Below are positions 3,001-46,835 of a DNA stretch of 64,000 nt, in pieces; position 1 is the stretch's first letter, and each line of letters begins with the position of its first letter. The translations under genes and the position numbers were made by a program. The DNA comes from Eledone cirrhosa (lineage: Eukaryota): positions 243,288,001-243,352,000 of the forward strand of contig OZ024743.1 in NCBI GenBank assembly GCA_964016885.1. Reading direction: 5' to 3'. The notes under the pieces are model-generated. The model saw nothing but the letters and a program-made list of their open reading frames with translations, had not been told where the DNA came from and searched no databases.

Positions 3001-6000
3001 TTGTAGTAGACACAGAGATAAACCAACCAAAGCGGTATAGTAATATTGTAGTAGACACAGACATAAACCAACCAAAAACGGTATAGTAATATTGTAGTAG
3101 ACACAGAGATAAACCAACCAAAAACGGTATAGTAATATTGTAGTAGACACAGAGATAAACCAACCAAAGTGGTTTAGTAATATTGTAGTAGACATAGACA
3201 TAAACCAACCAAAGCGGTATAGTAATATTGTAGTAGACACAGACATAAACCAACCAAAGCGGTATAGTAATATTGTAGTAGACACAGAGATAAACCAACC
3301 AAAGCGGTATAGTAATATTGTAGTAGACACAGACATAAACCAACCAAAGCGGTATAGTAATATTGTAGTAGACACAGACATAAACCAACCAAAGCGGTAT
3401 AGTAATATTGTAGTAGACACAGACATAAACCAACCAAAGTGGTATAGTAATATTGTAGTAGACACAGACATAAACCAACCAAAGTGGTATAGTAATATTG
3501 TAGTAGACACAGAGAGAAACCAACCAAAAGGGTATAGTAATATTGTAGTAGACACAGAGACAAACCAACCAAAGCTGTATAGTAATATTGTAGTAGACAC
3601 AGAGATACACCAACCAAAATGGTATAGTAATATTGTAGTAGACACAGACATAAACCAACCAAAGCGGTATAGTAATATTGTAGTAGACACAGACATAAAC
3701 CAACCAAAGTGGTATAGTAATATTGTAGTAGACACAGACATAAACCAACCAAAGCGGTATAGTAATATTGTAGTAGACACAGAGATAAACCAACCAAAAT
3801 GGTATAGTAATATTGTAGTAGACACAGACATAAACCAACCAAAAGGGTATAGTAATATTGTAGTAGACACAGACATAAACCAACCAAAGTGGTATAGTAA
3901 TATTGTAGTAGACACAGACATAAACCAACCAAAGCGGTATAGTAATATTGTAGTAGACACAGACATAAACCAACCAAAGCGATATAGTAATATTGTAGTA
4001 GACACAGACATAAACCAACCAAAGCGGTATAGTAATATTGTAGTAGACACAAGGCACTGTATCAACCAAAGCGGTATAGTAATATTGTAGTAGACACAGA
4101 CATAAACCAACCAAAGCGGTATAGTAATATTGTAGTAGACACAGACATAAACCAACCAAAATGGTATAGTAATATTGTAGTAGACACAGAGATAAACCAA
4201 CCAAAATGGTATAGTAATATTGTAGTAGACACAGAGATAAACCAACCAAAGCGTTATAGTAATATTGTAGTAGACACAGACATAAACCAACCAAAGCGGT
4301 ATAGTAATATTGTAGTAGACACAAGGCACTGTATCAACCAAAGCGGTATAGTAATATTGTAGTAGACACAGACATAAACCAACCAAAGCGGTATAGTAAT
4401 ATTGTAGTAGACACAGACATAAACCAACCAAAGTGGTATAGTAATATTGTAGTAGACACAGACATAAACCAACCAAAGCGGTATAGTAATATTGTAGTAG
4501 ACATAGACATAAAGCAACCAAACCGGTATAGTAATATTGTAGTAGACACAGACATAAACCAACCAAAGCGGTATAGTAATATTGTAGTAGACACAGACAT
4601 AAACCAACCAAAATGGTATAGTAATATTGTAGTAGACACAGACATAAACCAACCAAAGCGGTATAGTAATATTGTAGTAGACACAGAGATAAACCAACCA
4701 AAGCGGTATAGTAATATTGTAGTAGACACAGACATAAACCAACCAAAATGGTATAGTAATATTGTAGTAGACACAGACATAAACCAACCAAAGCGGTATA
4801 GTAATATTGTAGTAGACACAGACATAAACCAACCAAAGCGGTATAGTAATATTGTAGTAGACACAGAGATAAACCAACCAAAGCGGTATAGTAATATTGT
4901 AGTAGACACAGACATAAACCAACCAAAATGGTATAGTAATATTGTAGTAGACACAGACATAAACCAACCAAAGCGGTATAGTAATATTGTAGTAGACACA
5001 GAGATAAACCAACCAAAGCGGTATAGTAATATTGTAGTAGACACAGAGATAAACCAACCAAAATGGTATAGTAATATTGTAGTAGACACAGACATAAACC
5101 AACCAAATCGGTATAGTAATATTGTAGTAGACACAGAGATAAACCAACCAAAATGGTATAGTAATATTGTAGTAGACACAGACATAAACCAACCAAAGCG
5201 GTATAGTAATATTGTAGTAGACACAGACATAAACCAACCAAAGCGGTATAGTAATATTGTAGTAGACACAGACATAAACCAACCAAAATGGTTTAGTAAT
5301 ATTGTAGTAGACACAGACATAAACCAACCAAAGCGGTATAGTAATATTGTAGTAGACACAGAGATAAACCAACCAAAGCGGTATAGTAATATTGTAGTAG
5401 ACACAGAGATAAACCAACCAAAGCGGTATAGTAATATTGTAGTAGACACAGACATAAACCAACCAAAGCGGTATAGTAATATTGTAGTAGACACAGAGAT
5501 AAACCAACCAAAGCGGTATAGTAATATTGTAGTAGACACAGACATAAACCAACCAAAGTGGCATAATAATATTGTAGTAGACACAGACATAAACCAACCA
5601 AAGCGGTATAGTAATATTGTAGTAGACACAGACATAAACCAACCAAAGTGGCATAGTAATATTGTAGTAGACACAGACATAAACCAACCAAAGTGGTTTA
5701 GTAATATTGTAGTAGACACAGAGATAAACCAACCAAAGCGGTATAGTAATATTGTAGTAGACACAGACATAAACCAACCAAAGCGGTATAGTAATATTGT
5801 AGTAGACACAGACATAAACCAACCTAAGTGGTATAGTAATATTGTAGTAGACACAGACATAAACCAACCAAAGCGGTATAGTAATATTGTAGTAGACACA
5901 GACATAAACCAACCAAAGCGGTATAGTAATATTGTAGTAGACACAGACATAAACCAACCAAAGTGGTATAGTAATATTGTAGTAGACGCAGACATAAACC

Positions 6001-9000
6001 AACCAAAGCGGTATAGTAATATTGTAGTAGACACAGACATAAACCAACCAAAGCGGTATAGTAATATTGTAGTAGACACAGACATAAACCAACCAAAGCG
6101 GTATAGTAATATTGTAGTAGACACAGCGATAAACCAACCAAAATGGTATAGTAATATTGTAGTAGACACAGAGATAAACCAACCAAAAACGGTATAGTAA
6201 TATTGTAGTAGACACAGAGATAAACCAACCAAAAACGGTATAGTAATATTGTAGTAGACACAGACATAAACCAACCAAAGTGGTTTAGTAATATTGTAGT
6301 AGACATAGACATAAACCAACCAAAGCGGTATAGTAATATTGTAGTAGACACAGAGATAAACCAACCAAAAACGGTATAGTAATATTGTAGTAGACACAGA
6401 CATAAACCAACCAAAGTGGTTTAGTAATATTGTAGTAGACATAGACATAAACCAACCAAAGCGGTATAGTAATATTGTAGTAGACACAGAGATAAACCAA
6501 CCAAAGCGGTATAGTAATATTGTAGTAGACACAGACATAAAACAACCAAAATGGTATAGTAATATTGTAGTAGACACAGACATAAACCAACCAAATTGGT
6601 ATAGTAATATTGTAGTAGACACAGAGATAAACCAACCAAAGCGGTATAGTAATATTGTAGTAGACACAGACATAAACCAACCAAAAACGGTATAGTAATA
6701 TTGTAGTAGACACAGAGATAAACCAACCAAAAACGGTATAGTAATATTGTAGTAGACACAGACATAAACCAACCAAAGTGGTTTAGTAATATTGTAGTAG
6801 ACATAGACATAAACCAACCAAAGCAGTATAGTAATATTGTAGTAGACACAGACATAAACCAACCAAAGCGGTATAGTAATATTGTAGTAGACACAAGGCA
6901 CTGTATCAACCAAAGCGGTATAGTAATATTGTAGTAGACACAGACATAAACCAACCAAAGCGGTATAGTAATATTGTAGTAGACACAGAGATAAACCAAC
7001 CAAAGCGGTATAGTAATATTGTAGTAGACACAGAGAGAAACCAACCAAAAGGGTATAGTAATATTGTAGTAGACACAGAGACAAACCAACCAAAGCTGTA
7101 TAGTAATATTGTAGTAGACACAGAGATAAACCAACCAAAATGGTATAGTAATATTGTAGTAGACACAGACATAAACCAACCAAAGCGATATAGTAATATT
7201 GTAGTAGACACAGACATAAACCAACCAAAGCGGTATAGTAATATTGTAGTAGACACAAGGCACTGTATCAACCAAAGCGGTATAGTAATATTGTAGTAGA
7301 CACAGACATAAACCAACCAAAGCGGTATAGTAATATTGTAGTAGACACAGACATAAACCAACCAAAATGGTATAGTAATATTGTAGTAGACACAGAGATA
7401 AACCAACCAAAATGGTATAGTAATATTGTAGTAGACACAGAGATAAACCAACCAAAGCGTTATAGTAATATTGTAGTAGACACAGACATAAACCAACCAA
7501 AGCGGTATAGTAATATTGTAGTAGACACAAGGCACTGTATCAACCAAAGCGGTATAGTAATATTGTAGTAGACACAGACATAAACCAACCAAAGCGGTAT
7601 AGTAATATTGTAGTAGACACAGACATAAACCAACCAAAGTGGTATAGTAATATTGTAGTAGACACAGACATAAACCAACCAAAGCGGTATAGTAATATTG
7701 TAGTAGACATAGACATAAAGCAACCAAAGCGGTATAGTAATATTGTAGTAGACACAGACATAAACCAACCAAAGCGGTATAGTAATATTGTAGTAGACAC
7801 AGACATAAACCAACCAAAATGGTATAGTAATATTGTAGTAGACACAGACATAAACCAACCAAAGCGGTATAGTAATATTGTAGTAGACACAGAGATAAAC
7901 CAACCAAAGCGGTATAGTAATATTGTAGTAGACACAGACATAAACCAACCAAAATGGTATAGTAATATTGTAGTAGACACAGACATAAACCAACCAAAGC
8001 GGTATAGTAATATTGTAGTAGACACAGACATAAACCAACCAAAGCGGTATAGTAATATTGTAGTAGACACAGAGATAAACCAACCAAAGCGGTATAGTAA
8101 TATTGTAGTAGACACAGACATAAAACAACCAAAATGGTTTAGTAATATTGTAGTAGACACAGACATAAACCAACCAAAGCGGTATAGTAATATTGTAGTA
8201 GACACAGAGATAAACCAACCAAAGCGGTATAGTAATATTGTAGTAGACACAGACATAAACCAACCAAAAACGGTATAGTAATATTGTAGTAGACACAGAG
8301 ATAAACCAACCAAAAACGGTATAGTAATATTGTAGTAGACACAGAGATAAACCAACCAAAGTGGTTTAGTAATATTGTAGTAGACATAGACATAAACCAA
8401 CCAAAGCGGTATAGTAATATTGTAGTAGACACAGACATAAACCAACCAAAGCGGTATAGTAATATTGTAGTAGACACAGAGATAAACCAACCAAAGCGGT
8501 ATAGTAATATTGTAGTAGACACAGACATAAACCAACCAAAGCGGTATAGTAATATTGTAGTAGACACAGACATAAACCAACCAAAGCGGTATAGTAATAT
8601 TGTAGTAGACACAGACATAAACCAACCAAAGTGGTATAGTAATATTGTAGTAGACACAGACATAAACCAACCAAAGTGGTATAGTAATATTGTAGTAGAC
8701 ACAGAGAGAAACCAACCAAAAGGGTATAGTAATATTGTAGTAGACACAGAGACAAACCAACCAAAGCTGTATAGTAATATTGTAGTAGACACAGAGATAC
8801 ACCAACCAAAATGGTATAGTAATATTGTAGTAGACACAGACATAAACCAACCAAAGCGGTATAGTAATATTGTAGTAGACACAGACATAAACCAACCAAA
8901 GTGGTATAGTAATATTGTAGTAGACACAGACATAAACCAACCAAAGCGGTATAGTAATATTGTAGTAGACACAGAGATAAACCAACCAAAATGGTATAGT

Positions 9001-12000
9001 AATATTGTAGTAGACACAGACATAAACCAACCAAAAGGGTATAGTAATATTGTAGTAGACACAGACATAAACCAACCAAAGTGGTATAGTAATATTGTAG
9101 TAGACACAGACATAAACCAACCAAAGCGGTATAGTAATATTGTAGTAGACACAGACATAAACCAACCAAAGCGATATAGTAATATTGTAGTAGACACAGA
9201 CATAAACCAACCAAAGCGGTATAGTAATATTGTAGTAGACACAAGGCACTGTATCAACCAAAGCGGTATAGTAATATTGTAGTAGACACAGACATAAACC
9301 AACCAAAGCGGTATAGTAATATTGTAGTAGACACAGACATAAACCAACGAAAATGGTATAGTAATATTGTAGTAGACACAGAGATAAACCAACCAAAATG
9401 GTATAGTAATATTGTAGTAGACACAGAGATAAACCAACCAAAGCGTTATAGTAATATTGTAGTAGACACAGACATAAACCAACCAAAGCGGTATAGTAAT
9501 ATTGTAGTAGACACAAGGCACTGTATCAACCAAAGCGGTATAGTAATATTGTAGTAGACACAGACATAAACCAACCAAAGCGGTATAGTAATATTGTAGT
9601 AGACACAGACATAAACCAACCAAAGTGGTATAGTAATATTGTAGTAGACACAGACATAAACCAACCAAAGCGGTATAGTAATATTGTAGTAGACATAGAC
9701 ATAAAGCAACCAAACCGGTATAGTAATATTGTAGTAGACACAGACATAAACCAACCAAAGCGGTATAGTAATATTGTAGTAGACACAGACATAAACCAAC
9801 CAAAATGGTATAGTAATATTGTAGTAGACACAGACATAAACCAACCAAAGCGGTATAGTAATATTGTAGTAGACACAGAGATAAACCAACCAAAGCGGTA
9901 TAGTAATATTGTAGTAGACACAGACATAAACCAACCAAAATGGTATAGTAATATTGTAGTAGACACAGACATAAACCAACCAAAGCGGTATAGTAATATT
10001 GTAGTAGACACAGACATAAACCAACCAAAGCGGTATAGTAATATTGTAGTAGACACAGAGATAAACCAACCAAAGCGGTATAGTAATATTGTAGTAGACA
10101 CAGACATAAACCAACCAAAATGGTATAGTAATATTGTAGTAGACACAGACATAAACCAACCAAAGCGGTATAGTAATATTGTAGTAGACACAGAGATAAA
10201 CCAACCAAAGCGGTATAGTAATATTGTAGTAGACACAGAGATAAACCAACCAAAATGGTATAGTAATATTGTAGTAGACACAGACATAAACCAACCAAAT
10301 CGGTATAGTAATATTGTAGTAGACACAGAGATAAACCAACCAAAATGGTATAGTAATATTGTAGTAGACACAGACATAAACCAACCAAAGCGGTATAGTA
10401 ATATTGTAGTAGACACAGACATAAACCAACCAAAGCGGTATAGTAATATTGTAGTAGACACAGACATAAACCAACCAAAATGGTTTAGTAATATTGTAGT
10501 AGACACAGACATAAACCAACCAAAGCGGTATAGTAATATTGTAGTAGACACAGAGATAAACCAACCAAAGCGGTATAGTAATATTGTAGTAGACACAGAG
10601 ATAAACCAACCAAAGCGGTATAGTAATATTGTAATAGACACAGACATAAACCAACCAAAGCGGTATAGTAATATTGTAGTAGACACAGAGATAAACCAAC
10701 CAAAGCGGTATAGTAATATTGTAGTAGACACAGACATAAACCAACCAAAGTGGCATAATAATATTGTAGTAGACACAGACATAAACCAACCAAAGCGGTA
10801 TAGTAATATTGTAGTAGACACAGACATAAACCAACCAAAGTGGCATAGTAATATTGTAGTAGACACAGACATAAACCAACCAAAGTGGTTTAGTAATATT
10901 GTAGTAGACACAGAGATAAACCAACCAAAGCGGTATAGTAATATTGTAGTAGACACAGACATAAACCAACCAAAGCGGTATAGTAATATTGTAGTAGACA
11001 CAGACATAAACCAACCTAAGTGGTATAGTAATATTGTAGTAGACACAGACATAAACCAACCAAAGCGGTATAGTAATATTGTAGTAGACACAGACATAAA
11101 CCAACCAAAGCGGTATAGTAATATTGTAGTAGACACAGACATAAACCAACCAAAGTGGTATAGTAATATTGTAGTAGACGCAGACATAAACCAACCAAAG
11201 CGGTATAGTAATATTGTAGTAGACACAGACATAAACCAACCAAAGCGGTATAGTAATATTGTAGTAGACACAGACATAAACCAACCAAAGCGGTATAGTA
11301 ATATTGTAGTAGACACAGCGATAAACCAACCAAAATGGTATAGTAATATTGTAGTAGACACAGAGATAAACCAACCAAAAACGGTATAGTAATATTGTAG
11401 TAGACACAGAGATAAACCAACCAAAAACGGTATAGTAATATTGTAGTAGACACAGACATAAACCAACCAAAGTGGTTTAGTAATATTGTAGTAGACATAG
11501 ACATAAACCAACCAAAGCGGTATAGTAATATTGTAGTAGACACAGAGATAAACCAACCAAAAACGGTATAGTAATATTGTAGTAGACACAGACATAAACC
11601 AACCAAAGTGGTTTAGTAATATTGTAGTAGACATAGACATAAACCAACCAAAGCGGTATAGTAATATTGTAGTAGACACAGACATAAACCAACCAAAGCG
11701 GTATAGTAATATTGTAGTAGACACAGAGATAAACCAACCAAAGCGGTATAGTAATATTGTAGTAGACACAGACATAAAACAACCAAAATGGTATAGTAAT
11801 ATTGTAGTAGACACAGACATAAACCAACCAAATTGGTATAGTAATATTGTAGTAGACACAGAGATAAACCAACCAAAGCGGTATAGTAATATTGTAGTAG
11901 ACACAGACATAAACCAACCAAAAACGGTATAGTAATATTGTAGTAGACACAGAGATAAACCAACCAAAAACGGTATAGTAATATTGTAGTAGACACAGAC

Positions 12001-15000
12001 ATAAACCAACCAAAGTGGTTTAGTAATATTGTAGTAGACATAGACATAAACCAACCAAAGCAGTATAGTAATATTGTAGTAGACACAGACATAAACCAAC
12101 CAAAGCGGTATAGTAATATTGTAGTAGACACAGAGATAAACCAACCAAAGCGGTATAGTAATATTGTAGTAGACACAGAGAGAAACCAACCAAAAGGGTA
12201 TAGTAATATTGTAGTAGACACAGAGACAAACCAACCAAAGCTGTATAGTAATATTGTAGTAGACACAGAGATAAACCAACCAAAATGGTATAGTAATATT
12301 GTAGTAGACACAGACATAAACCAACCAAAGCGATATAGTAATATTGTAGTAGACACAGACATAAACCAACCAAAGCGGTATAGTAATATTGTAGTAGACA
12401 CAAGGCACTGTATCAACCAAAGCGGTATAGTAATATTGTAGTAGACACAGACATAAACCAACCAAAGCGGTATAGTAATATTGTAGTAGACACAGACATA
12501 AACCAACCAAAATGGTATAGTAATATTGTAGTAGACACAGAGATAAACCAACCAAAATGGTATAGTAATATTGTAGTAGACACAGAGATAAACCAACCAA
12601 AGCGTTATAGTAATATTGTAGTAGACACAGACATAAACCAACCAAAGCGGTATAGTAATATTGTAGTAGACACAAGGCACTGTATCAACCAAAGCGGTAT
12701 AGTAATATTGTAGTAGACACAGACATAAACCAACCAAAGCGGTATAGTAATATTGTAGTAGACACAGACATAAACCAACCAAAGTGGTATAGTAATATTG
12801 TAGTAGACACAGACATAAACCAACCAAAGCGGTATAGTAATATTGTAGTAGACATAGACATAAAGCAACCAAAGCGGTATAGTAATATTGTAGTAGACAC
12901 AGACATAAACCAACCAAAGCGGTATAGTAATATTGTAGTAGACACAGACATAAACCAACCAAAATGGTATAGTAATATTGTAGTAGACACAGACATAAAC
13001 CAACCAAAGCGGTATAGTAATATTGTAGTAGACACAGAGATAAACCAACCAAAGCGGTATAGTAATATTGTAGTAGACACAGACATAAACCAACCAAAAT
13101 GGTATAGTAATATTGTAGTAGACACAGACATAAACCAACCAAAGCGGTATAGTAATATTGTAGTAGACACAGACATAAACCAACCAAAGCGGTATAGTAA
13201 TATTGTAGTAGACACAGAGATAAACCAACCAAAGCGGTATAGTAATATTGTAGTAGACACAGACATAAACCAACCAAAATGGTATAGTAATATTGTAGTA
13301 GACACAGAGATAAACCAACCAAAGCGTTATAGTAATATTGTAGTAGACACAGAGATAAACCAACCAAAATAGTATAGTAATATTGTAGTAGACACAGACA
13401 TAAACCAACCAAAGCGGTATAGTAATATTGTAGTAGACACAGAGATAAACCAACCAAAGCGGTATAGTAATATTGTAGTAGACACAGAGATAAACCAACC
13501 AAAATGGTATAGTAATATTGTAGTAGACACAGACATAAACCAACCAAAGCGGTATAGTAATATTGTAGTAGACACAGAGATAAACCAACCAAAATGGTAT
13601 AGTAATATTGTAGTAGACACAGACATAAACCAACCAAAGCGGTATAGTAATATTGTAGTAGACACAGACATAAACCAACCAAAGCGGTATAGTAATATTG
13701 TAGTAGACACAGACATAAACCAACCAAAATGGTTTAGTAATATTGTAGTAGACACAGACATAAACCAACCAAAGCGGTATAGTAATATTGTAGTAGACAC
13801 AGAGATAAACCAACCAAAGTGGTATAGTAATATTGTAGTAGACACAGACATAAACCAACCAAAGTGGTATAGTAATATTGTAGTAGACACAGACATAAAC
13901 CAACCAAAGCGGTATAGTAATATTGTAGTAGACACAGACATAAACCAACCAAAGTGGTTTAGTAATATTGTAGTAGACACAGACATAAACCAACCAAAGT
14001 GGTTTAGTAATATTGTAGTAGACACAGACATAAACCAACCAAAGCGGTATAGTAATATTGTAGTAGACACAGACATAAACCAACCAAAGCGGTATAGTAA
14101 TATTGTAGTAGACACAGAGATAAACCAACCAAAGCGGTATAGTAATATTGTAGTAGACACAGAGATAAACCAACCAAAGCGGTATAGTAATATTGTAGTA
14201 GACACAGACATAAACCAACCAAAGCGGTATAGTAATATTGTAGTAGACACAGAGATAAACCAACCAAAGCGGTATAGTAATATTGTAGTAGACACAGACA
14301 TAAACCAACCAAAGTGGCATAGTAATATTGTAGTAGACACAGACATAAACCAACCAAAGCGGTATAGTAATATTGTAGTAGACACAGACATAAACCAACC
14401 AAAGTGGCATAGTAATATTGTAGTAGACACAGACATAAACCAACCAAAGTGGTTTAGTAATATTGTAGTAGACACAGAGATAAACCAACCAAAGCGGTAT
14501 AGTAATATTGTAGTAGACACAGACATAAACCAACCAAAGCGGTATAGTAATATTGTAGTAGACACAGACATAAACCAACCTAAGTGGTATAGTAATATTG
14601 TAGTAGACACAGACATAAACCAACCAAAGCGGTATAGTAATATTGTAGTAGACACAGACATAAACCAACCAAAGCGGTATAGTAATATTGTAGTAGACAC
14701 AGACATAAACCAACCAAAGTGGTATAGTAATATTGTAGTAGACGCAGACATAAACCAACCAAAGCGGTATAGTAATATTGTAGTAGACACAGACATAAAC
14801 CAACCAAAGCGGTATAGTAATATTGTAGTAGACACAGACATAAACCAACCAAAGCGGTATAGTAATATTGTAGTAGACACAGCGATAAACCAACCAAAAT
14901 GGTATAGTAATATTGTAGTAGACACAGAGATAAACCAACCAAAAACGGTATAGTAATATTGTAGTAGACACAGAGATAAACCAACCAAAAACGGTATAGT

Positions 15001-18000
15001 AATATTGTAGTAGACACAGACATAAACCAACCAAAGTGGTTTAGTAATATTGTAGTAGACATAGACATAAACCAACCAAAGCGGTATAGTAATATTGTAG
15101 TAGACACAGAGATAAACCAACCAAAAATGGTATAGTAATATTGTAGTAGACACAGACATAAACCAACCAAAGTGGTTTAGTAATATTGTAGTAGACATAG
15201 ACATAAACCAACCAAAGCGGTATAGTAATATTGTAGTAGACACAGACATAAACCAACCAAAGCGGTATAGTAATATTGTAGTAGACACAGAGATAAACCA
15301 ACCAAAGCGGTATAGTAATATTGTAGTAGACACAGAGAGAAACCAACCAAAAGGGTATAGTAATATTGTAGTAGACACAGAGACAAACCAACCAAAGCTG
15401 TATAGTAATATTGTAGTAGACACAGAGATAAACCAACCAAAATGGTATAGTAATATTGTAGTAGACACAGACATAAACCAACCAAAGCGGTATAGTAATA
15501 TTGTAGTAGACACAGACATAAACCAACCAAAGTGGTATAGTAATATTGTAGTAGACACAGACATAAACCAACCAAAGCGGTATAGTAATATTGTAGTAGA
15601 CACAGAGATAAACCAACCAAAATGGTATAGTAATATTGTAGTAGACACAGACATAAACCAACCAAAATGGTATAGTAATATTGTAGTAGACACAGACATA
15701 AACCAACCAAAGTGGTATAGTAATATTGTAGTAGACACAGACATAAACCAACCAAAGCGGTATAGTAATATTGTAGTAGACACAGACATAAACCAACCAA
15801 AGCGATATAGTAATATTGTAGTAGACACAGACATAAACCAACCAAAGCGGTATAGTAATATTGTAGTAGACACAAGGCACTGTATCAACCAAAGCGGTAT
15901 AGTAATATTGTAGTAGACACAGACATAAACCAACCAAAGCGGTATAGTAATATTGTAGTAGACACAGACATAAACCAACCAAAATGGTATAGTAATATTG
16001 TAGTAGACACAGAGATAAACCAACCAAAGCGGTATAGTAATATTGTAGTAGACACAGACATAAACCAACCAAAGCGATATAGTAATATTGTAGTAGACAC
16101 AGACATAAACCAACCAAAGCGGTATAGTAATATTGTAGTAGACACAAGGCACTGTATCAACCAAAGCGGTATAGTAATATTGTAGTAGACACAGACATAA
16201 ACCAACCAAAGCGGTATAGTAATATTGTAGTAGACACAGACATAAACCAACCAAAGTGGTATAGTAATATTGTAGTAGACACAGACATAAACCAACCAAA
16301 GCGGTATAGTAATATTGTAGTAGACATAGACATAAAGCAACCAAAGCGGTATAGTAATATTGTAGTAGACACAGACATAAACCAACCAAAGCGGTATAGT
16401 AATATTGTAGTAGACACAGACATAAACCAACCAAAATGGTATAGTAATATTGTAGTAGACACAGACATAAACCAACCAAAGCGGTATAGTAATATTGTAA
16501 TAGACACAGAGATAAACCAACCAAAGCGGTATAGTAATATTGTAGTAGACACAGACATAAACCAACCAAAATGGTATAGTAATATTGTAGTAGACACAGA
16601 CATAAACCAACCAAAGCGGTATAGTAATATTGTAGTAGACACAGACATAAACCAACCAAAATGGTATAGTAATATTGTAGTAGACACAGAGATAAACCAA
16701 CCAAAGCGTTATAGTAATATTGTAGTAGACACAGAGATAAACCAACCAAAATGGTATAGTAATATTGTAGTAGACACAGACATAAACCAACCAAAGCGGT
16801 ATAGTAATATTGTAGTAGACACAGAGATAAACCAACCAAAATGGTATAGTAATATTGTAGTAGACACAGACATAAACCAACCAAAGCGGTATAGTAATAT
16901 TGTAGTAGACACAGAGATAAACCAACCAAAATGGTATAGTAATATTGTAGTAGACACAGACATAAACCAACCAAAGCGGTATAGTAATATTGTAGTAGAC
17001 ACAGACATAAACCAACCAAAGCGGTATAGTAATATTGTAGTAGACACAGACATAAACCAACCAAAATGGTTTAGTAATATTGTAGTAGACACAGACATAA
17101 ACCAACCAAAGCGGTATAGTAATATTGTAGTAGACACAGACATAAACCAACCAAAGCGGTATAGTAATATTGTAGTAGACACAGAGATAAACCAACCAAA
17201 GCGGTATAGTAATATTGTAGTAGACACAGAGATAAACCAACCAAAGCGGTATAGTAATATTGTAGTAGACACAGACATAAACCAACCAAAGTGGTATAGT
17301 AATATTGTAGTAGACACAGACATAAACCAACCAAAGTGGTATAGTAATATTTTAGTAGACACAGAGATAAACCAACCAAAGCGGTATAGTAATATTGTAG
17401 TAGACACAGACATAAACCAACCAAAGCGGTATAGTAATATTGTAGTAGACACAAGGCACTGTATCAACCAAAATGGTATAGTAATATTGTAGTAGACACA
17501 GACATAAACCAACCAAAGTGGTATAGTAATATTGTAGTAGACACAGACATAAACCAACCAAAGTGGTATAGTAATATTGTAGTAGACACAGAGATAAACC
17601 AACCAAAATGGTATAGTAATATTGTAGTAGACACAGAGATAAACCAACCAAAATGGTATAGTAATATTGTAGTAGACACAGAGATAAACCAACCAAAGCG
17701 TTATAGTAATATTGTAGTAGACACAAGGCACTGTATCAACCAAAATGGTATAGTAATATTGTAGTAGACACAGACATAAACCAACCAAAGCGGTATAGTA
17801 ATATTGTAGTAGACACAAGGCACTGTATCAACCAAAATGGTATAGTAATATTGTAGTAGACACAGACATAAACCAACCAAAGTGGTTTAGTAATATTGTA
17901 GTAGACACAGAGATAAACCAACCAAAGTGGTATAGTAATATTGTAGTAGACACAGACATAAACCAACCAAAGCGGTATAGTAATATTGTAGTAGACACAG

Positions 18001-18920
18001 ACATAAACCAACCAAAGCGGTATAGTAATATTGTAGTAGACACAAGGCACTGTATCAACCAAAGCGGTATAGTAATATTGTAGTAGACACAGACATAAAC
18101 CAACCAAAACGGTATAGTAATATTGTAGTAGACACAGACATAAACCAACCAAAGCGGTATAGTAATATTGTAGTAGACACAGACATAAACCAACCAAAAT
18201 GGTATAGTAATATTGTAGTAGACACAGACATAAACCAACCAAAGCGGTATAGTAATATTGTAGTAGACACAGACATAAACCAACCAAAGCGGTATAGTAA
18301 TATTGTAGTAGACACAAGGCACTGTATCAACCAAAGCGGTATAGTAATATTGTAGTAGACACAGACATAAACCAACCAAAACGGTATAGTAATATTGTAG
18401 TAGACACAGACATAAACCAACCAAAGCGGTATAGTAATATTGTAGTAGACACAGACATAAACCAACCAAAGCGGTATAGTAATATTGTAGTAGACACAGA
18501 CATAAACCAACCAAAACGGTATAGTAATATTGTAGTAGACACAGAGATAAACCAACCAAAATGGTATAGTAATATTGTAGTAGACACAGAGATAAACCAA
18601 CCAAAATGGTATAGTAATATTGTAGTAGACACAGACATAAACCAACCAAAGTGGTATAGTAATATTGTAGTAGACACAGACATAAACCAACCAAAGTGGT
18701 ATAGTAATATTGTAGTAGACACAAGGCACTGTATCAACCAAAATGGTTTAGTAATATTGTAGTAACCACAGCTGTACCAACCGAAATGGTTTGGTACAAT
18801 TGTGTTAGTCAAGGCACTATATCAACTGAAATGGTTTGGTACAATTATAGTAGACAAGGTGCTACATAACGAAAATGGTTTGGTTTAATTGTACTAGACA
18901 AAGTGCTGTATCAACCAAGA
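1..18920. repeat. Tandem satellite array, 45-bp core monomer (roughly 420 units), intronic in the CYB5RL-like gene
   Basis: Core consensus TATAGTAATATTGTAGTAGACACAGACATAAACCAACCAAAGCGG, with 46-bp (AAAAACGG) and 47-bp (CAAGGCACTGTATC) variants. 43-44-bp edge monomers GCTGTACCAACCAAAATGGTTTGGTATAATTGTAGTAGACACA at ~1-620 and ~18770-18920. The array reaches the left window edge. Confidence 0.99.
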
Positions 18921-26339: not shown

Positions 26340-27730
26340 ACGACAAGCAGACAGATTCGCTGAGCATCTCCAGGACATCTGGCTCAGCAACCAGTCTCTG
26401 GATACTTAACATTTCTGTCCGCCAAACACTCCTCCCACCACCTCACAGTTTTTGGCCTCGTTGCTTACTCCAAATTTTTTTTTCTCTCCAAACTTTTAGT
26501 GGACACGGCCTAAATGCCCCACCCCTTTTCCTTTAGCATGCTCTTTCCCCACACACACCTACCATCCACTCTCACACCCACTCACATGTATACTTAGGCA
26601 AACTAACACTCGTAGATATGAAAAAAACGCACCAACACAATTAATTACACTAATATGTCTATAGATAGACATTTTAATTTACTAACGTTACTAATTAACT
26701 AATTAATTATACTAACAGACTACTCTCATACCAACATATATACTCCACTCCCAACATCCTCCACTATGCATACAAAGACATGCCAACATGATTATAGAGA
26801 AATGTACAACAGAATTTTCCTAACATTACTAATTAACTAACTAATCATATACATAACTAACCACATTACAGCATTAATGCTACACTCCTTTACTACCAGT
26901 ATACACACACCATCACAAAATAGGCACAACAGATCTCCCTCACAGTGACTTTGTAACACTACACCACCTCCTCATTCACCACACCTTCACTCCATACTAC
27001 TTCTGTTCTTTGTGTGCCACACTCATCCAACCCTCCTCTGGCCACTTCCTGAAATAGCCCAGCTTTGACCACTGCACACTATTCTTTCCCACAAGCTGTG
27101 ACTTGAAGCCCTGGATTTTACAACACACTGATACAATCATACAAGCTTATGCACACACATTCATATACATACACTAATAACTACCTAAACTCACCCAAAC
27201 ACACTAATATGTACACACATGCACACATAAAAGTACATTAAAAATTCACAGACAAACACACACAAACGTGTACACACAGACACACAAAAATATATAAAAA
27301 ATTCTGACATTCACATATGTATACACACGCGTACACACCCATACAAACATACACACACAAAGTCATACACTCATACCCAAACCAGTACATAAAAAATTCA
27401 TAGACACACGCAGATACACACACTTCTATTAATGATACACAAAAACACTAACGTACACCTATGAAATGCACACACATGTGTAACAACACCCATGACACAC
27501 CTGGACTCTCCACCTCGCCCCCCACCTCCGCCACACACTGTACTATTCACCTACCCTTCCCAGGCTTCTTAATTTTTTTCCCCAAAACTGCTCTCACTCT
27601 CTCTGAACTTTTCTATTTCTTGGAGAAGGACTGATGTCTGATACATTGAAACATTCATTTACTTCTTCCCAAGCATGAATCTAATAAGACTTTGTTTTTG
27701 CATGCCTGTGTTTGTCTTGTTTATTTTTAA
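26340..27730 (+). mobile_element. Decayed 3' portion of a Penelope-like element (GIY-YIG C-terminus, long UTR, hammerhead-like motif)
   Basis: ADRFAEHLQDI...HF remnant at ~26358; GGCCACTTCCTGAAATAGCCCAGCTTTGACC shared in inverted orientation with ~50250; degenerate hammerhead-like motif at 27616-27651. Confidence 0.55.
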
Positions 27731-28632
27731 ACTTATACACACACACACGCACACACACACATATATAATCATCATCATCGTTTAACGTCTATCTTCCACG
27801 CTATCATGGGTTTAAATATATATACCTAGCTAAAAGTAAGCCACTCTACTTGGCATTTGTCGACCTTGAGAAAGCCTTTGACAGAGTTCCACGTGCAGTA
27901 ATCTGGTGGGCTCTTAGAAAACTAGGAGTAGATGAATGGCTTGTGAAAGCGGTACAAGCCATGTATAGGGGAGCAGTCAGCAAAGTTAGGATTGGCAATG
28001 AGTATAGCGAGGAATTTAGCGTACAGGTTGGGGTCCACCAGGGCTCTGTTCTTAGCCCTCTCCTGTTCATCATAGTCCTGCAGGCAATAACGGAGGAGTT
28101 TAAGACCGGATGCCCATGGGAACTCCTGTATGCTGATGACCTCGCACTCATAGCTGAATCTATGTTTTTGCATGCCTGTGTTTGTCTTGTTTATTTTTAA
28201 ACTTATACACACACACACGCACACACACACATATATAATCATCATCATCGTTTAACGTCTATCTTCCACGCTATCATGGGTTTAAATATATATACCTAGC
28301 TAAAAGTAAGCCACTCTACTTGGCATTTGTCGACCTTGAGAAAGCCTTTGACAGAGTTCCACGTGCAGTAATCTGGTGGGCTCTTAGAAAACTAGGAGTA
28401 GATGAATGGCTTGTGAAAGCGGTACAAGCCATGTATAGGGGAGCAGTCAGCAAAGTTAGGATTGGCAATGAGTATAGCGAGGAATTTAGCGTACAGGTTG
28501 GGGTCCACCAGGGCTCTGTTCTTAGCCCTCTCCTGTTCATCATAGTCCTGCAGGCAATAACGGAGGAGTTTAAGACCGGATGCCCATGGGAACTCCTGTA
28601 TGCTGATGACCTCGCACTCATAGCTGAATCTA
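27693..28632 (+). repeat. Apparently exact 470-bp tandem duplication spanning the 5' junction of an RTE
   Basis: 27693-28162 matches 28163-28632; ORFs at 27850 and 28320 are offset by 470; TG microhomology at the junction. Confidence 0.95.
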
Positions 28633-29859
28633 TGGTAGAACTAGAGAATAAATTCCAAACCTGGAAGCAGGGACTAGAGAGAAAGGGCCTCAAAGTCAAC
28701 ATGACAAAGACTAAGGTCCTTGTAAGTAGACGAGAAAACAGAACCCAGATCCCCTCAGGGAAATGGCCTTGCTCAGTATGTAGGAAAGGTGTAGGTAGGA
28801 ACTCCATTCTCTGCCCCAAATGCAAACAATGGGTACACAAGAGATGTAGCGGGATCTCAGGAAGCTTAATTAAGAATGTAGGATTCACATGCAGCAGCTG
28901 TGCTGAAACAGCAAGCAAACAGCCACAGGAAACAAGTACCACCAATCTCTGGGAGGGCCCTGTAGAAACAGTAGACAGCTTCTGCTACCTAGGTGACCGA
29001 ATTAGCAACGGAGGTGGGTGCTCAGAAAGTACAATAACTAGGGTAAGAACGGGATGGAAGAAGTTTAGGGAACTACTACCACTGCTAGCTGCAAAAGGCT
29101 TCTCCCTCAGAATGAAAGGCAGACTGTATGATGCGTGTATCCGAACAGCGATGTTGCATGGTAGTGAGACCTGGGCGCTGAAGGTGGAAGACTTACGTAG
29201 ATTAGAGAGAAACGAAGCCTGCATGCTCCGATGGATGTGTAACAGTAATATACGTGAACGACAAAGCATAAAGGAATTGAGAGAGAGACTGAGCATAAGA
29301 GGAATCAAATGCTGCGTGCAGGAGAGGCGGTTACGCTGGTATGGACATGTGATGCGTATGAAGGATGACAGCTGCATAAAAAGGTGCAGAGCACTAGAAG
29401 TTGATGGAAACCGCGGAGTGGGGAGACCCAAGATGACTTGGGATGAGGTGATAAAAGCCGACCTTACCCAACTACACCTCTCAAAGTCAATGACACACGA
29501 CCGTGACTTCTGGCGTCACGCAGTAATACAGGGTACCCGACCTCCCATGGGTACATGCTGAAGCATATAAACAATATGCCCCCCCCCCCCACCGCAAGGT
29601 GGCCGTGGAGGTGCCACGGCAAAAAAGCACCCAGCCCACACTGTAAAGTGGACGTGTAGGCGCCACGAAAAAGCACCCAGCACTCACTGTAAATGAGGTT
29701 GGTGTTAGGAAGGGCATCCAGCTGTAGAAATCAAGCCAGATCAGTTCCTGTATGAGCAAGGCATGGTCAGCCGACCAGACACTGCCCACAACAGGACAAC
29801 CCGTCTAACCCATGCTAGCGTGGAAGAACGGACGTAAAACGGTGATGATGATGATGATG
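28293..29859 (+). mobile_element. 5'-truncated RTE-clade LINE (RT C-terminal half, 3' UTR, (GAT)n tail)
   Basis: Open frame 28320-29561 with FVDLEKAFD, GVHQGSVLSP, YADD and LRWYGHV motifs; ends in GATGATGATG. Confidence 0.95.
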
Positions 29860-36135: not shown

Positions 36136-36681
36136 TATATTTATGTAAGCACTGCCAATAATTTAAAGCAAAATATATTAAAGTAATATTTTTCTTCTAA
36201 TTTTATTAACTTTCTTTTAATCACAAAATGATCTCTGAACCTACCTGCATTACCAACTAGTCTATATTTTAGACAGTTTGATTAAAAAAAAAAGATTAAT
36301 GAAGATACACATCTGAATGGATAATTAACTTTGTCTGCATTCCTTATATCAATGTGATTATTCATAAATATTTTTAAAATTTTAATGTTTATTTATTTAT
36401 CCTTATTCTATCACTGATAAATAGTGTACACAACACAAAGTATAGCTCACAGCATTGTTTTAACATTTTCTCTTGTCTGTCACTTAGATTTGCTTATATA
36501 GAGAATTTTTAATTTTGCTGTGTAAGCAATATGTGGTAAGGAGTTCAGCCCACAACCTTGTGGTTTCAGGTTTAATCCCACTACACTGCTCCATCTACTA
36601 TTACCCCAGGTTGACCAATGCCTTGAAATTGGAAGATGGAACCTGTAGAATCCTGCCCACCCCACACACACATATATATAT

Positions 36682-36896
36682 ATAGTGGTAGAACACTGGA
36701 AGGTAATATCCATAGTGGTAGAGCACTCAGTCCATGGGACGAGTTAGGTAGAGGTTGTTACACAACAGTTAGTTCACCATACCGAGAACAATTGTTTCAC
36801 CTTAGCGGATCCCCAGCAGATCCCCAGCTGAGGATCCGCTAAGATGAAACAATTGTTCTCGGTATGGTGAACTAACTGTTGTGTAACCACTTCTAC
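36682..36896. mobile_element. (TA)n-embedded palindromic mini-element A with hammerhead-like motifs
   Basis: ~66-bp head shared with element B, then an inverted repeat 36748-36896. The right arm reads CTGAGGA-TCCGCTAAGAT-GAAA-CAATTG-TT. Confidence 0.75.
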
Positions 36897-37007
36897 ATAT
36901 ATATATATATATGAATGGGCATTCAATTCATGAACATCACTGTTTGTTCATTCCCTTTCACTTCAAATTTGGATTACCTCCTTGATTGTAACCTTATTAT
37001 GTAATAC

Positions 37008-37085
37008 GCTGTCTGAAGAGAGCATGGCACTGGGTTCTACGCCGAATCGCGTAGCCAATGTCGTCCTCGAAATATGTATCACAGC
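37008..37085 (+). ncRNA. Type I hammerhead ribozyme motif (PLE-type) in a short (TA)n-flanked insert 36913-37130
   Basis: Stem I GCTGT/ACAGC; CTGAAGA (37013-37019); stem II closed by GAG/CTC; GAAA (37069-37072); short stem III TATGTA; AUC site, predicted cut after 37080; AATAAA just downstream. Confidence 0.75.
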
Positions 37086-37161
37086 ATTATCAATAAAGGA
37101 CTTTATCATCTAAACTTTGTATTTCCTTATTATATATATATATATATATATGTGTATATAT

Positions 37162-37420
37162 ATAGTGGTAAAACACTGGAAAGTTATATCCGTAGTAAGT
37201 AGAGCACTCAGTCCATAGGACGAGTCAGGTATAAAGTTAGTTCCACAACAAATTAGCAAACCATACTTGGGGATACACATTTCACCCAACTGATTCTCAA
37301 CTTGAGTGGAGTTGTACTGAAAACGTTTTTAGCACAACCTCACTTGAGTTGAGAATCCATTGGGTGAAACACACATCCTCAAGTATGGTTTACTAATTTG
37401 TTGTGGAACTAACTTTTTAT
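37162..37420. mobile_element. (TA)n-embedded palindromic mini-element B with U3-A8 hammerhead motifs
   Basis: Same head as element A; palindrome 37231-37420 centred on AAAACGTTTT. Right arm reads ACTTGAG-TTGAGAA-TCCATTGGGT-GAAA-CACACATC-CTCAAGT (37342-37384). Confidence 0.75.
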
Positions 37421-37468
37421 ATATATATTCGAAATTAAGGTTTTTAAATATCTCACAAGGGGTAAAAT

Positions 37469-39849: not shown

Positions 39850-41700
39850 CTCTTCTTCTCTAAACGACATACCTTTACCTAGGAATAAAGACTTTATAAA
39901 AAAAACTAATAGAAAAATCGGACTCATTTATAAGAAGACTCAGGTGGCGAGCATTTCATTTCGATAAATCTGATGCAAAAGAGAATATTTCCAATCTCGA
40001 TAGAATCTTCAAATCCAAAAAGAATCCACCTTCCAACAAACTACTAATGGATTTTGAAAATGAGATCATCTCTATTATACAAAGCATTAGTTAGATTGAT
40101 TGCACCATCTAAATCAGACCTTGGCATACTTAGCAAGAATATTTTAGACAGAATCATACCACAAATTAAGGAATTATCTTATTTAAAATTATGGAAAGGG
40201 ACTAATGAAGCTATCGACTGGTTTAAGGACATTAAATATAACTATAATAATAAATTTATTCAATTGGCTATTGCTAATTATTACTTATCCATCACTCCTA
40301 ATCTACTTAATAAAGCCCTCACATATGCATTTAAACATACAGACTTAACTAGTAATGAAATGCACATTATCTTAACTGCACGGAAAACATTAATTAAATT
40401 TAACAACCACCTCTGGACTAGAGCAGACAGAGATAGTAATTTCAATATCACTATGGGGTCATCCGATTCCGCACAAATAACGGATCTTGTGGGGCTTTTT
40501 ATTAATATACATAGGAAAATACCGAAGATGACCGGAGGTTTATATCGCGACGATATGCTACTACTTATAGAAAATAATAATAACTGTGAAATAAATAGGA
40601 AAAGAAAAGAAATTATACAATTTTTTAATTACCTTAATCTTATAGAAATAGAGAATAATTATAAAATAGTTAACTTTCTAGATGTAACTTTAAACCTTAA
40701 CACAGGTCTTTATTATCCATTTCACAAAATAAATGAGAACTTAAACTACGTTAACTTTAATTCCAATCACCCCAGATCCGTTAAAAACACTATAGTGCAC
40801 TATAGTGCAGCAACGTATTTCTAGAATTTCAGCTAATAGGAATATTTTTGAAGATAAGTGCAATATTATAATGAAGCGTTAGGTAGAGCTGGATATAGTA
40901 ATAAAATTAAATACATTGATAATAATGATGTGCCAACTAACCATAACTTTAAAAACTATAATAGAAAACCTTACAATAACTCGAAAAACAAAAAAAGAAA
41001 TAGAACTAGGAATATATTATGGTTTGCTCCCCCTTTCTCATTAAGTATTAAAACTCCTATTGCTAAATTATTCTTTAAAGCTCTAGATAAATGCTTTCCT
41101 AGAACTCAATATTTAATAGACATACTATAAAATTATCGTATTCCACCACTAGTAATTTAGCACAGAATATTAATAGAATTAATAATAGAAACTTAAAACC
41201 TAACCAGAATACCATTAATAACCCTAGCAATATCCAATATGATAGTACGGCTCCTAGTAACTTAAATTTAGATAAATGTAACTGTAGAAATAAATCTAAC
41301 TGTCCTCTAAATAATAATTGTTTAGTTAAAAATATAGTATACAATTGTAATGTAAAAACTAATATAAATTCCTTTAATTATGTAGGCTCTACCTCCACAG
41401 ATTTTAAGTCCCGTTTTAATAACCATAAATGCTCTTTTACGAATATAGGTAAAGAATCTTCAACTTCTCTATCTAATTTACTATGAGACCTAAAATCAAA
41501 GAACATTAACTATTCTTTACTTTGGAATATTATCTCCAACGCTCCTTCATTCAATGCTTCATCTGAAAATTGTGCTCTTTGTATAGAGGAAATATTCTTT
41601 ATATTAAAAAGTAAGAATTCTGTTAATTTAAGGAATAATTTATTCAGTTCTTGTAAACATCGGTTAAATTCAACGTTTAAATATATATATAAAATGTAAT
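39850..41700 (+). pseudogene. Penelope RT/GIY-YIG ORF, internally deleted and frameshifted
   Basis: FIRRLRWRAFHF N-terminal motif, ORFs 40054-40824 and 40858-41130, and a GIY-YIG frame ~41280-41700 with an internal stop. Confidence 0.85.
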
Positions 41701-43603: not shown

Positions 43604-46600
43604 TTAGGTAAGGCGGGTCTTCTCTGTTACTGAGTACCGCCAAAGGTCTCGGTCCAGTGACATTGTCTTGGAGAGGTGTAAGTGTGTGATGTCGGAGTTT
43701 ATCAGCTCGTCCCAGGTTTTTCTAGGTCTGCCTATTCCGTGACTACCGTCTATCTTTATTGCCCTGCACTTTGTTATACAGCTATCGACTTTCATGCGCA
43801 TCACGTGTCCATACCAACGTAGCCTTCTCTCGAGTAAACAACATCTGATCCCTCTTATCTCTAATTTTTTCCTTAGTTCGTTTATGCTTTGCCGTTCACG
43901 TATATTACTGTTACACATCCAGCGGAGCATGCAAGCTTCGTTCCTCTCTAGTCTGCGTATATCCTCTGCACACAATGCCCAGGTCTCACTGCCATGCAGC
44001 ATTGCTGTTCGTATGCAGGCATCGTACAACCTGCCTTTCATTTTTAGTGAGAACCCTTTAAAGAACCCTTTAAGCTCTCTGAACTTTTTCCAACCAGTTC
44101 TGACTCTAGCTACAGTACTTTCAGAGCACCCTCCCCCACTGCTGATTTTATCGCCCAGGTAACGGAAGCTGTCCACTATTTCTATAGAACCCTCTGCGCA
44201 ATTGAAAGAGCTAGTATTTTGTGGGCACTTGCTGCTACTTATTGCACCAGAGCACCGGCCACATGTAAAATCTATGTTCTTAGTTAGCTTACCTGTGATC
44301 CCACTACATCTTTTATGCACCCATACTTTGCATTTAGGACATAAAATGGAGTTTCTACCTACGCCTTTCCTACACACCGAGCACGACCATTTCCCAGAAG
44401 GGATCGCCGCCTTGTTTTCTTTCCTACAAACTAGTACTTTGGTCTTAGCCAGGTTAATTTTAAGTCCTTTTGACTCTAGGCCGTGCTTCCATGTTTGGAA
44501 TTTCTTCTCTAGCTCGGCCATTGATTCCGCTATGAGTATCAGGTCATCTGCGTATAGGAGTTCCCATGGGCAGCCTGTCTTGAACTCCTCTGTTATAGCC
44601 TGAAGGGCAATAATAAATAGTAGTGGGCTGAGAACAGAGCCCTGATGGACGCCAACTTTTACGCTAAACTCTTCACTATATTCGTTGTTAATTCTAACCT
44701 TGCTGACTGTTTCTTTATACATGGCTTGTATAGCCCTCACAAGCCATTCGTCAACGCCTAGTTTTCTAAGAGCCCACCAGATAATGGAGCGGGGGACTCT
44801 GTCGAAGGCTTTCTCCAAGTCGACAAAAGCTAAGTAGAGGGGTTTACCTTTAGCTAGGTACTTCTCCTGTAGTTGTCGTACTATGAAAAGAGCGTCTGTG
44901 GTACTTTTGCCTGACACAAACCCGAACTGCATTTCATCTAGGTCAATTCTCTCTCTGATTAGTTGCGCTATTACTTTTTCCGTGACCTTCATCACCTGGT
45001 CGATTAATTTAATGCCTCTATAGTTACTCCTATCTAGGGCGTCTCCTTTACCCTTATAACAGTTAATGATGATGCTGCTATGCCAGTCCTTCGGAACAAC
45101 ACCATTCTGTACGACTTGGTTAACTATGCGGGTGACCATGGTGTGTCCCACCGTGCCAGATGCCTTCAGCATCTCAGCAACTATTTCCGAAGGCCCAGCC
45201 GCCTTACCCGTCTTCATATCCTTGATTGCCTTACTTATTATACTCCCCTCGACTAACACTGCTGGTCCCTCTATTGGGTCGATATGGGGGAGACTGTCTT
45301 TCTCCCATTTATTCTCCTCATTTAGTAGCCTTTCATAGTGACACTTCCAAGCTACCTTCTTATCAGCGTCGGTGATGGCAAGTGTGCCATCGTCGTTTAG
45401 TACACACTTCTCCCCGACAATATCACGGTTTTCCTTGACGCATTGCCTAGCAATCCTGAACACCTCATGTTTTTGGTCATCGCGTTGTAGAACATGCTTG
45501 AACTTTCTTTCCTCAGCTTCCCTTCTTGCTAAGTACACTTGTCTCCTAGCTTCCCTCCTGGCCACTTGATAGTCCTCTCTACTTCCCCCATCCCGCCATA
45601 CTTTCCAAGCCTACTTTTTGGCCTTAATTGACCCCTCCACCTTACTGTTCCACCACCATGTTACTCTCCTCCTGCCTACAGGCCTGCTCCAGCCACAGAC
45701 TTCGTCTGTCGCCAACAGCAGGTTTGCTTTCAGAAATTCCCACTCTCCCTCTATATTGTCCGACTCTAAATGTTCTTCCTTACTGTCGAAAGCATCAAGT
45801 AATATGCTTTGAAATTTATTCCTGGCTGTGGGGTCCTTTAGCTTCCATATTTTTCTCCTGAGGATAGTCCTCTTCTGCTGTCGAGTACGTCTCGTCCTGA
45901 CTATGAGGTCGCTAGTTATCAGTCTATGTTGGGAGGTGCATTCTTCATGGGGGAGGGATTTAGTGTTTACAACAGACACTCTGTCACGTCTTCTGGTAAG
46001 GATATAATCTACCTGGCTTGTGTGTTCCCCGGATCTATAGGTGATCAGGTGATTGTCACGTTTTTTGAAGTTAGTGTTACAGATAGTTAGGTTATTTGCA
46101 TCACAGAATTCCAGGATTCTGGAGCCTTCCTCATTTCTAGTACCAAACCCATAGCCTCCATGGATTTCGTCGTAGCCGTCACAATGTTGTCCAACGTGAC
46201 CATTTAGGTCGCCTGCGATAATTATATAGTCACTGTCGGATATTTGGGAGGTAGTTAGCATCAGTGTCTCATAGAATCTGTCTTTTATAGTGCCGGGCAG
46301 TCCGGATTGGGGTGCGTACGCAGATATTACTGTCACCGTAGTTCTATTGAGGACAAGTCGTATTTTAATTATTCTGTCGTTCACTCTATTTACGTCTATT
46401 ATCTTATCTGCCCACTTTTCTGCTACCATGATTCCTACTCCACCCAGCCCATCGTCGTTTCCCACCCAGAAAAGCTTATAACATCGTTTTTTACCCTCAA
46501 TGAACCTAGCAGACCCACCCCTCCACCTGGTCTCTTGAATACAACAAACATCGACCTCCTTACGTTCAAGCATTTCTACAACCTCGTTAGCGCGACCCTT

Positions 46601-46835
46601 TAGGGTGCCTACATTTATGGTACCAACTCTGAAGTTTTGGATTGCGTTTGGGGGTTGGGGGCGGTGGGGGGGCGGGGGGCGATGGGGTTATGTTAGCCGT
46701 CCGCGGTCGAAACAATGAGGAGTGCTCGCATTCTCGTCCAAGAGGTGAATTTGTCTTTATCTTTGGCATTGTCGCTGAGCGTCCAGATTTTTCTCTCTCT
46801 CTCCTCCACTCTCCAGGATTCCGCAGTCCATCCAT
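43604..46835 (-). pseudogene. RTE ORF (APE endonuclease + RT + Cys/His finger), nearly intact
   Basis: VGTINV, CIQETRW, GDLNGH, VDYIL and SQHRL (APE); YADD (RT). Lesions seen: a frameshift in the G-rich run near 46650, an in-frame TAG at 45611-45613, and a small duplication-replacement near 44051-44073. Confidence 0.92.

Follow-up and report, generated by a model that had tools for sequence, protein, structure and literature searches.

Short palindromic insertions with hammerhead motifs in Eledone cirrhosa: probable truncated and inverted copies of Hydra-clade Penelope-like elements

Two palindromic elements in TA repeats

The window, that is the whole stretch of 64,000 nucleotides analysed here, contains two short elements, A and B, each lying within (TA)n at the place where the initial annotation had located it. 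Their common architecture, in which a shared head precedes a palindrome, TA repeats flank the element, and each arm is laid out as a hammerhead, is real as judged by sequence reading and repeat search. The repeat search delimited inverted arms of 73 nt each in A (36745-36817 and 36827-36899, 93% complementary) and of 95 nt each in B (37230-37324 and 37325-37419, 83% complementary), and resolved the common head into two direct-repeat blocks, one of 42 nt at 90% identity and one of 33 nt at 94%. The (TA)n target flank of A occupies positions 36671-36684, and further TA flanks lie at approximately 36897-36912, 37131-37164, and 37419-37428. A 16-mer of the head, searched with up to three mismatches, has three matches in the window against 0.36 expected; the third head-like match, at 58175, has no element downstream and so is not part of one. 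No tandem array was found at the site of A and B, the arms being inverted.

Element A is best read from its minus strand. Its head (36682-36748, minus strand, 67 nt) lies 3' of the pseudo-LTR arm in the sense of the element, contains a conserved predicted hairpin, and corresponds to the Penelope "tail". The tail-bearing arm (36749-36817, minus strand) is a pseudo-LTR with the hammerhead layout, the core of which has decayed to CTGGGGA (36810-36816). The junction between the arms (36818-36827) consists of a G and ATCCCCAG ahead of the core, and is ambiguous: it can be read as a putative cap G plus the start site, or as a local 10-nt duplication. The inverted tailless arm (36828-36896, plus strand) carries the core CTGAGGA at 36828-36834 and stem III, ACAATTGT, at 36849-36856, terminates at the border between arm and tail, and is 98.6% identical over 70 nt to the coding copy L126. 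Thus, the core CTGAGGA assigned to A as a whole holds for the plus-strand arm, and the minus-strand arm has lost A6. Even in the plus-strand arm, one pair of stem II (CC/GA) and one pair of stem I are broken.

The head of B (37162-37229, minus strand, 68 nt) is the tail of an older sister family, with about 81% identity to A-family coding copies across a 105-nt tail region. Both arms of B have the core TTGAGAA, as had been described: at 37294-37300 in the tail-bearing arm (37230-37324, minus strand), in which stems I to III are decayed, and at 37349-37355 in the inverted tailless arm (37325-37419, plus strand). A perfect 7-bp stem I (ACTTGAG at 37342 with CTCAAGT at 37378) was found in the latter arm, and the same description does not extend to the other one. 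The octamer guessed to be the ancestral stem III of B, ACGCGCGT, turned out to be the commonest one in the family (6 of 34 arms), and it is decayed in both arms in the window. All four hammerheads of the window are damaged or decayed. A scan of the window against Rfam gave no hammerhead match down to an E value of 10, just hairpin miRNA models below their cut-offs.

Several other repeats are present in the window. At 40048-40824 (plus strand) there is a reverse transcriptase (RT) fragment from a Hydra-like family that is more distant; over 232 aa, the fragment shares 40% identity with the ORF of the coding parent described below. LINE-like open frames, an AP endonuclease-like one of 358 aa followed by an RT-like one of 668 aa, occupy 43604-46687 on the minus strand, and a second RT piece of 440 aa lies at 28239-29561 on the plus strand; both may be RTE-like. 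A tandem array of 416 copies of a 45-nt unit (94% match, strong AT skew, unit length a multiple of three) covers 16-18771. Positions 27693-28634 hold a perfect 470-nt tandem duplication, which may be recent or an assembly artefact.

Coding parents and the ribozyme of the two families

The arms and head belong to elements that encode a protein. The reverse complement of A (positions 80-215) matches, at 95.6% over 136 nt, the 3' end of the coding copy L126/L098, the 5' end of which is occupied by an inverted tailless arm of 70 nt. Several copies of B without a fold-back continue into common sequence, the hammerhead-sense strand of which is a broken ORF with a CxCx5C motif, and longer copies of the B family run on into an endonuclease-type ORF. 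A protein search with a 170-aa piece of this B-derived ORF gave 46,732 first-look candidates, of which 150 were scored, and many of the 30 loci fetched terminate in the head and arm of A, with 90-96% identity. Between the B piece and the ORF of A, identity is 60%; no intact ORF of the B family was found, its pieces being broken. Twenty longer stretches that were fetched have open frames of up to 628 aa. Hence, a retroelement origin and a link to Penelope-like elements (PLEs), both proposed in the initial annotation, are borne out, since the arms are the 3' end of RT-coding elements.

The organization of the parent is apparent from copies with tandem or partial-tandem pseudo-LTRs. One copy (L135) is a head-to-tail tandem with 2,577 nt between its two cores, i.e., a unit of about 2.58 kb with one ORF, and two more (L123 and L124) consist of an inverted piece, a 5' pseudo-LTR, and the ORF. 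In all three, the head runs on into a 5' UTR, and the first ATG comes 288 nt after the core. The 3' end of the parent comprises the hammerhead, arm, and tail, and the tandem copies have all three again 5' of the ORF. These copies identify the head as the Penelope tail and the arm as the pseudo-LTR. The tail has a predicted hairpin with a loop that varies among copies selected for the stem, and this hairpin may be the binding site of the protein. At another locus (L139), a second, divergent Hydra-like ORF stands in tandem beside an A-family copy.

Homologues of the parent ORF number 946 among 8,000 scored candidates and are mostly unnamed proteins of about 700 aa. In Foldseek, the structure model of the ORF (pLDDT 93.3) retrieved TERT at ranks 1 to 8 (top E value 4.5e-10), and a fold comparison with TERT gave a Z score of 17.2 and an rmsd of 4.1 with 276 residues aligned. 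The motif GxYRDD is kept in all 119 aligned proteins. By this model, the parent has a telomerase-like RT in a single ORF. Sequence searches of Pfam and PDB with the parent ORF or its profile gave nothing significant, and a match to GIY-YIG was obtained in one homologue only (P0001). Toward the C-terminus, Y503, Y521, G523, and E591 are conserved and the model has a strand-strand-helix order, which marks a candidate GIY-YIG endonuclease domain; the supplement of PMC8557442 aligns this stretch as EN for its Hydra elements. GIY-YIG structures were absent from the fold matches listed, which the RT domain filled (rows span residues 35-405).

The features of the Hydra clade, as listed by Craig et al. 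(2021; PMC8557442), are a unit shorter than 3 kb, RWK, DKT, a CxCx5C linker, CxxC and CxH replacing CCHH, hammerheads, and (TA)n targets. The unit of L135 is below 3 kb. RWK is found in 72 of 118 homologues and RWR in 16 of 118, and the parent itself has RWR; in the DKT motif, D, K, and T are kept in 117, 118, and 111 of 119 aligned proteins, respectively. The three linker cysteines are present in 119/119 and CxxC in 118, and CPH follows LN in the parent copies. The targeting of a microsatellite, which had been suggested from A and B, is a property of the family: at the sites surveyed below, TA adjoins the tail in 77 of 88 cases and the tailless end in 48 of 55, against a background of 4-10% (98/2,499 and 421/4,072 windows). 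From the motifs and from a comparison by eye with published sequences, the parents of A and B appear to belong to the Hydra clade. They resemble Hydra-1_Obim and Penelope-n_HM, as given in the same source, in motifs, in an inverted 5'-truncated copy, and in (TA)n targets, and the start of the parent ORF is by eye much like the Hydra-1_Obim protein in its supplement. The hammerhead likewise lies near the 3' end, with stem II flanked by one additional T on each side and, in many cases, with U at the cut site, as in Hydra-clade hammerheads (PMC8557442). In contrast, its sequence differs from those of all the compared Hydra rows of File S2, and its stem II is just 2 bp, unlike that of the Hydra clade. 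The tail is 66-69 nt long, whereas 30-40 nt is the length given for PLEs in PMC8557442. The accessible part of PMC13282606 mentions PLEs, not Hydra or hammerheads.

The initial annotation had stressed a swap of the 3-8 pair between A and B, and this swap is upheld at the family level. To count positions 3 and 8, arms were anchored on downstream sequence, and both positions were excluded from the filter; 48 of the 132 A arms and 26 of the 60 B arms collected were dropped as truncated or not colinear. C3-G8 is present in 76 of the 84 remaining A arms, and U3-A8 in 33 of the 34 remaining B arms. By column counts over the same arms, the pseudo-LTR of both families has the core and stems of the hammerhead layout, with a stem II of 2 bp and a palindromic stem III, which is ACAATTGT in 70 of 84 A arms; at position 17, A has U and B has C. 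The swap amounts to a single change that separates the two families and does not represent covariation seen repeatedly. Two divergent copies of B-like type, L333 and L340, which stand outside the filtered counts, have U3-G8 cores. These copies (L333, 1392-1481, and L340, approximately 1420-1480, both plus strand) form a B-like subfamily in which the core is TTGAAGA and stem II is longer; it may represent a step between C3-G8 and U3-A8. The pattern of core and stems supports, as far as sequence goes, selection on the ribozyme in the active parents. The claim of a ribozyme under selection therefore probably holds for the coding parents, and the stubs need no such selection, the arms in the window being decayed.

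U3-A8 itself has a precedent. It is known in the Cercyon elements of Schistosoma (PMC4209133), whereas the compared Hydra rows of File S2 (PMC8557442) all have C3-G8 and family B here has U3-A8. With the minimal hammerheads of metazoan PLEs (Cervera and De la Pena, 2014; PMC4209133), those of A and B share type I, a bulged base before stem II, and a palindromic stem III; the stem II of those hammerheads is longer than here, measuring 7-8 bp in S. mansoni. Pairs of hammerheads on opposite strands, 100-700 bp apart, are also known in PLEs, and in the accessible part of that paper they are not tied to a tail or to a transcript start. Thus, opposite-strand hammerhead pairs, U3-A8, tails, inversions, and TA targeting have all been published already for PLEs.

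Genomic copies and their variable centres

A search of the own genome (3.0 Gb) with A gave 1,054 first-look candidates and that with B gave 2,687, 40 being scored in each case. That copies exist elsewhere, as would be expected of a family, is evident from an exact 20-mer over the junction of head and arm of A, which occurs 3,107 times (control 0); a degenerate 23-mer for the older B family occurs 67 times. Among the best A matches, head and arms are near-constant, and the centre of the palindrome varies by copy. By eye, 47 of 50 centres are distinct in the 50 listed out of 238 short palindromes with both cores intact, one centre recurring three times and another twice. Arm lengths run continuously from 13 to over 1,500 nt, up to copies that bear the ORF. 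The variable lengths and the distinct centres together indicate that each palindrome was most likely made at insertion.

For a survey, 91 of the 3,107 tail-bearing sites were taken in order along contig C1, the first 30 loci covering only 1,509 nt downstream. An inverted tailless arm is present at 55 of these sites, 36 of which are short palindromes like A and 19 of which have at least one long arm; at the other 36 sites no inverted arm was seen (23 long and 13 short). Three of the 91 sites run on into the 5' UTR, and two of the loci (L159/L160) look like one duplicated insertion. The tail is found on the short inverted copy at L101, L113, L115, and L117, and on the ORF-bearing arm at L098 and L099. 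Elsewhere, insertions of three or four parent pieces in mixed orientation (L162, L178, L181, L205, and L230) suggest template jumps during insertion. A different TA-associated repeat, often palindromic, adjoins several copies, as in the flanks of L071, L060, L074, and L115.

It had been proposed that A and B represent a distinct, non-coding and non-autonomous family with a rod-like layout that presents a ribozyme on either strand; in this view, head and palindrome would be transcribed as a rod-like RNA and copied in trans by the Penelope protein. Non-autonomous derivatives of PLEs are known (PMC8557442; bioRxiv 10.64898/2026.07.22.740005), short palindromes are the commonest single class in the survey (36/91), and the few recurrent centres noted above could be taken as descent from a master. 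The most recurrent one accounts for 13 of 28 loci listed after selection by pattern. But relative to the tail this centre is found one way round at 5 loci and the other way at 8, so that one master copy cannot give it, and the fixed internal structure expected of a master-derived, SINE-like family is contradicted by the differing centres and by arm lengths that are continuous up to ORF-bearing copies. Moreover, the arms are 92-99% identical to the coding parents and have no private features, i.e., they are the 3' end of autonomous RT-coding elements. We consider such a family improbable, and the rod-like RNA is unsupported, the centres being copy-specific and the arms coming from coding parents.

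Two other classes of short elements can be compared here. The non-LTR retrozymes (bioRxiv 10.64898/2026.07.22.740005) are, like A and B, short and non-coding with a type I hammerhead, and derive from pseudo-LTRs of PLEs. They are built of head-to-tail tandem units, each with a hammerhead, whereas single inverted pairs with copy-specific centres are found here. Inverted repeats with TA flanks also recall a DNA-transposon MITE or a fold-back element inserted at TA, the alternative that the initial annotation had named against itself. In A and B, the head lies outside the inverted repeat and on one side only, centres and lengths vary, and the arms, contiguous with the RT ORF in many copies, constitute the 3' end of an element that encodes an RT, which rules out this alternative for practical purposes.

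Insertion ends and the formation of the palindromes

We therefore regard A and B, with a probability of about 0.86, as severely 5'-truncated, inverted insertions of two related protein-coding PLE families of the Hydra clade, each likely formed at insertion from two cDNAs. The ends of the copies bear on how this may happen. Tailless arms end at +67 to +71, counted from the first base of the core, in 45 of 55 cases, and tails end about 66 nt beyond. This distance points to two fixed start points. At the opposite side, the ends gather a little upstream of the core, those of tail arms lying between -12 and +11 in 32 of 91 cases and those of tailless arms in 24 of 55. Cleavage by the hammerhead had been considered as what sets these 5' ends, and was ruled out, since ends at +30 to +33, by the predicted cut, were seen in only 1 of 91 tail arms and 1 of 55 tailless arms. 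The pile-up of ends is broad, from -30 to +60, so that a reading by start site and cap covers part of the ends only.

The base at -9 deserves attention. In the main subfamily, it is C in 1,777 copies, G in 194, and A or T in 221. Loss at -9 amounts to 18.9%, as compared with 8.0% at -8 and 9.2% at -10. G accounts for 8.9% of the bases at -9, and counts by eye over the first 100 rows put it at roughly 1% and 3% in the adjacent positions. Long arms seldom have G at -9 (2 of 91). When 30 loci with G were inspected, 29 were true ends, and four pairs among the 30 are the two arms of one insertion. By a loose test, neither the other arm nor the flank accounts for 18 of 30 G's and 6 of 30 A/T's, and 11 of 30 G's can be read as continuing the opposite arm or the flank. 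The untemplated G that many short arms carry at their ends is likely to reflect the RNA cap. The step of ends at -8 together with the excess of G leads us to propose, at roughly even odds, a capped transcript start at -8 with run-off of the RT. Among the papers listed by a literature search outside subscription journals, none concerned a cap signature or twin priming in PLEs.

A palindrome could also come from the same parents if one cDNA stalled at the folded hammerhead and snapped back on itself. The spread of ends over the ribozyme region agrees with stalling, and snap-back fits equally well the many centres that form nearly symmetric hairpins or short palindromes, for example AGCT or AATT. 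On the other hand, where a short tail-bearing arm is joined to a long ORF-bearing tailless arm, the latter cannot have been templated by a short cDNA, and stalling does not predict a step at -8 with excess G. Since the tail can be on the short arm or on the ORF-bearing one, two separately primed cDNAs are favoured over snap-back of one, which we hold to be unlikely, though less so than a separate non-autonomous family.

The formation from two cDNAs may be pictured as follows. The protein of the element would cut both strands of the TA repeat, and two RTs would start at two sites about 66 nt apart, one at the end of the tail and one at the end of the arm. RTs that start in the 5' pseudo-LTR of the transcript would come to the end of the RNA within some 80-145 nt and run off, in many cases with a base added opposite the cap. 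Head-to-head joining of the two short cDNA ends would then give tail, arm, and inverted arm, as in A and B. The hammerhead probably works as a dimer or with help of the protein, and would be mostly uncut in the RNA that is copied. The resulting stubs would be dead on arrival. In its specific form, that the short palindromes are the record of a Penelope "strong-stop" synthesis, in which a dimer primes both strands at two sites 66 nt apart, runs off at the cap 8 nt upstream of the core, and has its cDNAs joined, this proposal draws on sequence patterns, and we give it an even chance.

Parts of this scheme have counterparts in other systems. In the account of Frangieh et al. (2024; PMC11167929), Poseidon PAc of Anolis has, as shown in vitro and as proposed here, two RT start sites that bracket the tail, in a stem-loop downstream of the hammerhead; both strands of an AT-rich target are cut and extended, cleavage by the ribozyme is dispensable for insertion, and a dimer is predicted. 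PAc belongs to a different clade, and its start sites lie within the ORF, about 30-40 nt apart by the definition of the tail, whereas those of the present family lie in the 5' UTR, about 66 nt apart, with strict (TA)n targeting. Twin priming of L1 (PMC11702581) is similar in that a second RT primed from the other DNA end causes an inversion, and full-length 5' junctions of L1 carry an extra G derived from the cap. The second primer of L1 lands at variable internal sites, whereas the second start here is fixed at the border between arm and tail.

Because truncated, inverted Penelope insertions have been described before, A and B are not to be counted as a new ribozyme-bearing element. The origin of the inverted ends and tails of PLEs is named an open question in PMC8557442, and the present family offers over 3,000 young copies with countable ends. 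Two features of the counts bear directly on this question: ends at -8 with an additional G are in excess, and hardly any ends fall at the cut site. The stubs, if read through, are predicted to give long hairpin RNA. The sister families with C3-G8 and U3-A8 and different palindromic stems III make a natural pair for the question of whether cleavage depends on a dimer or on help of the protein. If the strong-stop reading is true, thousands of copies would map the start site and two priming sites in the Hydra clade, for which there has been no biochemistry so far, and would also show that cleavage by the ribozyme is dispensable.
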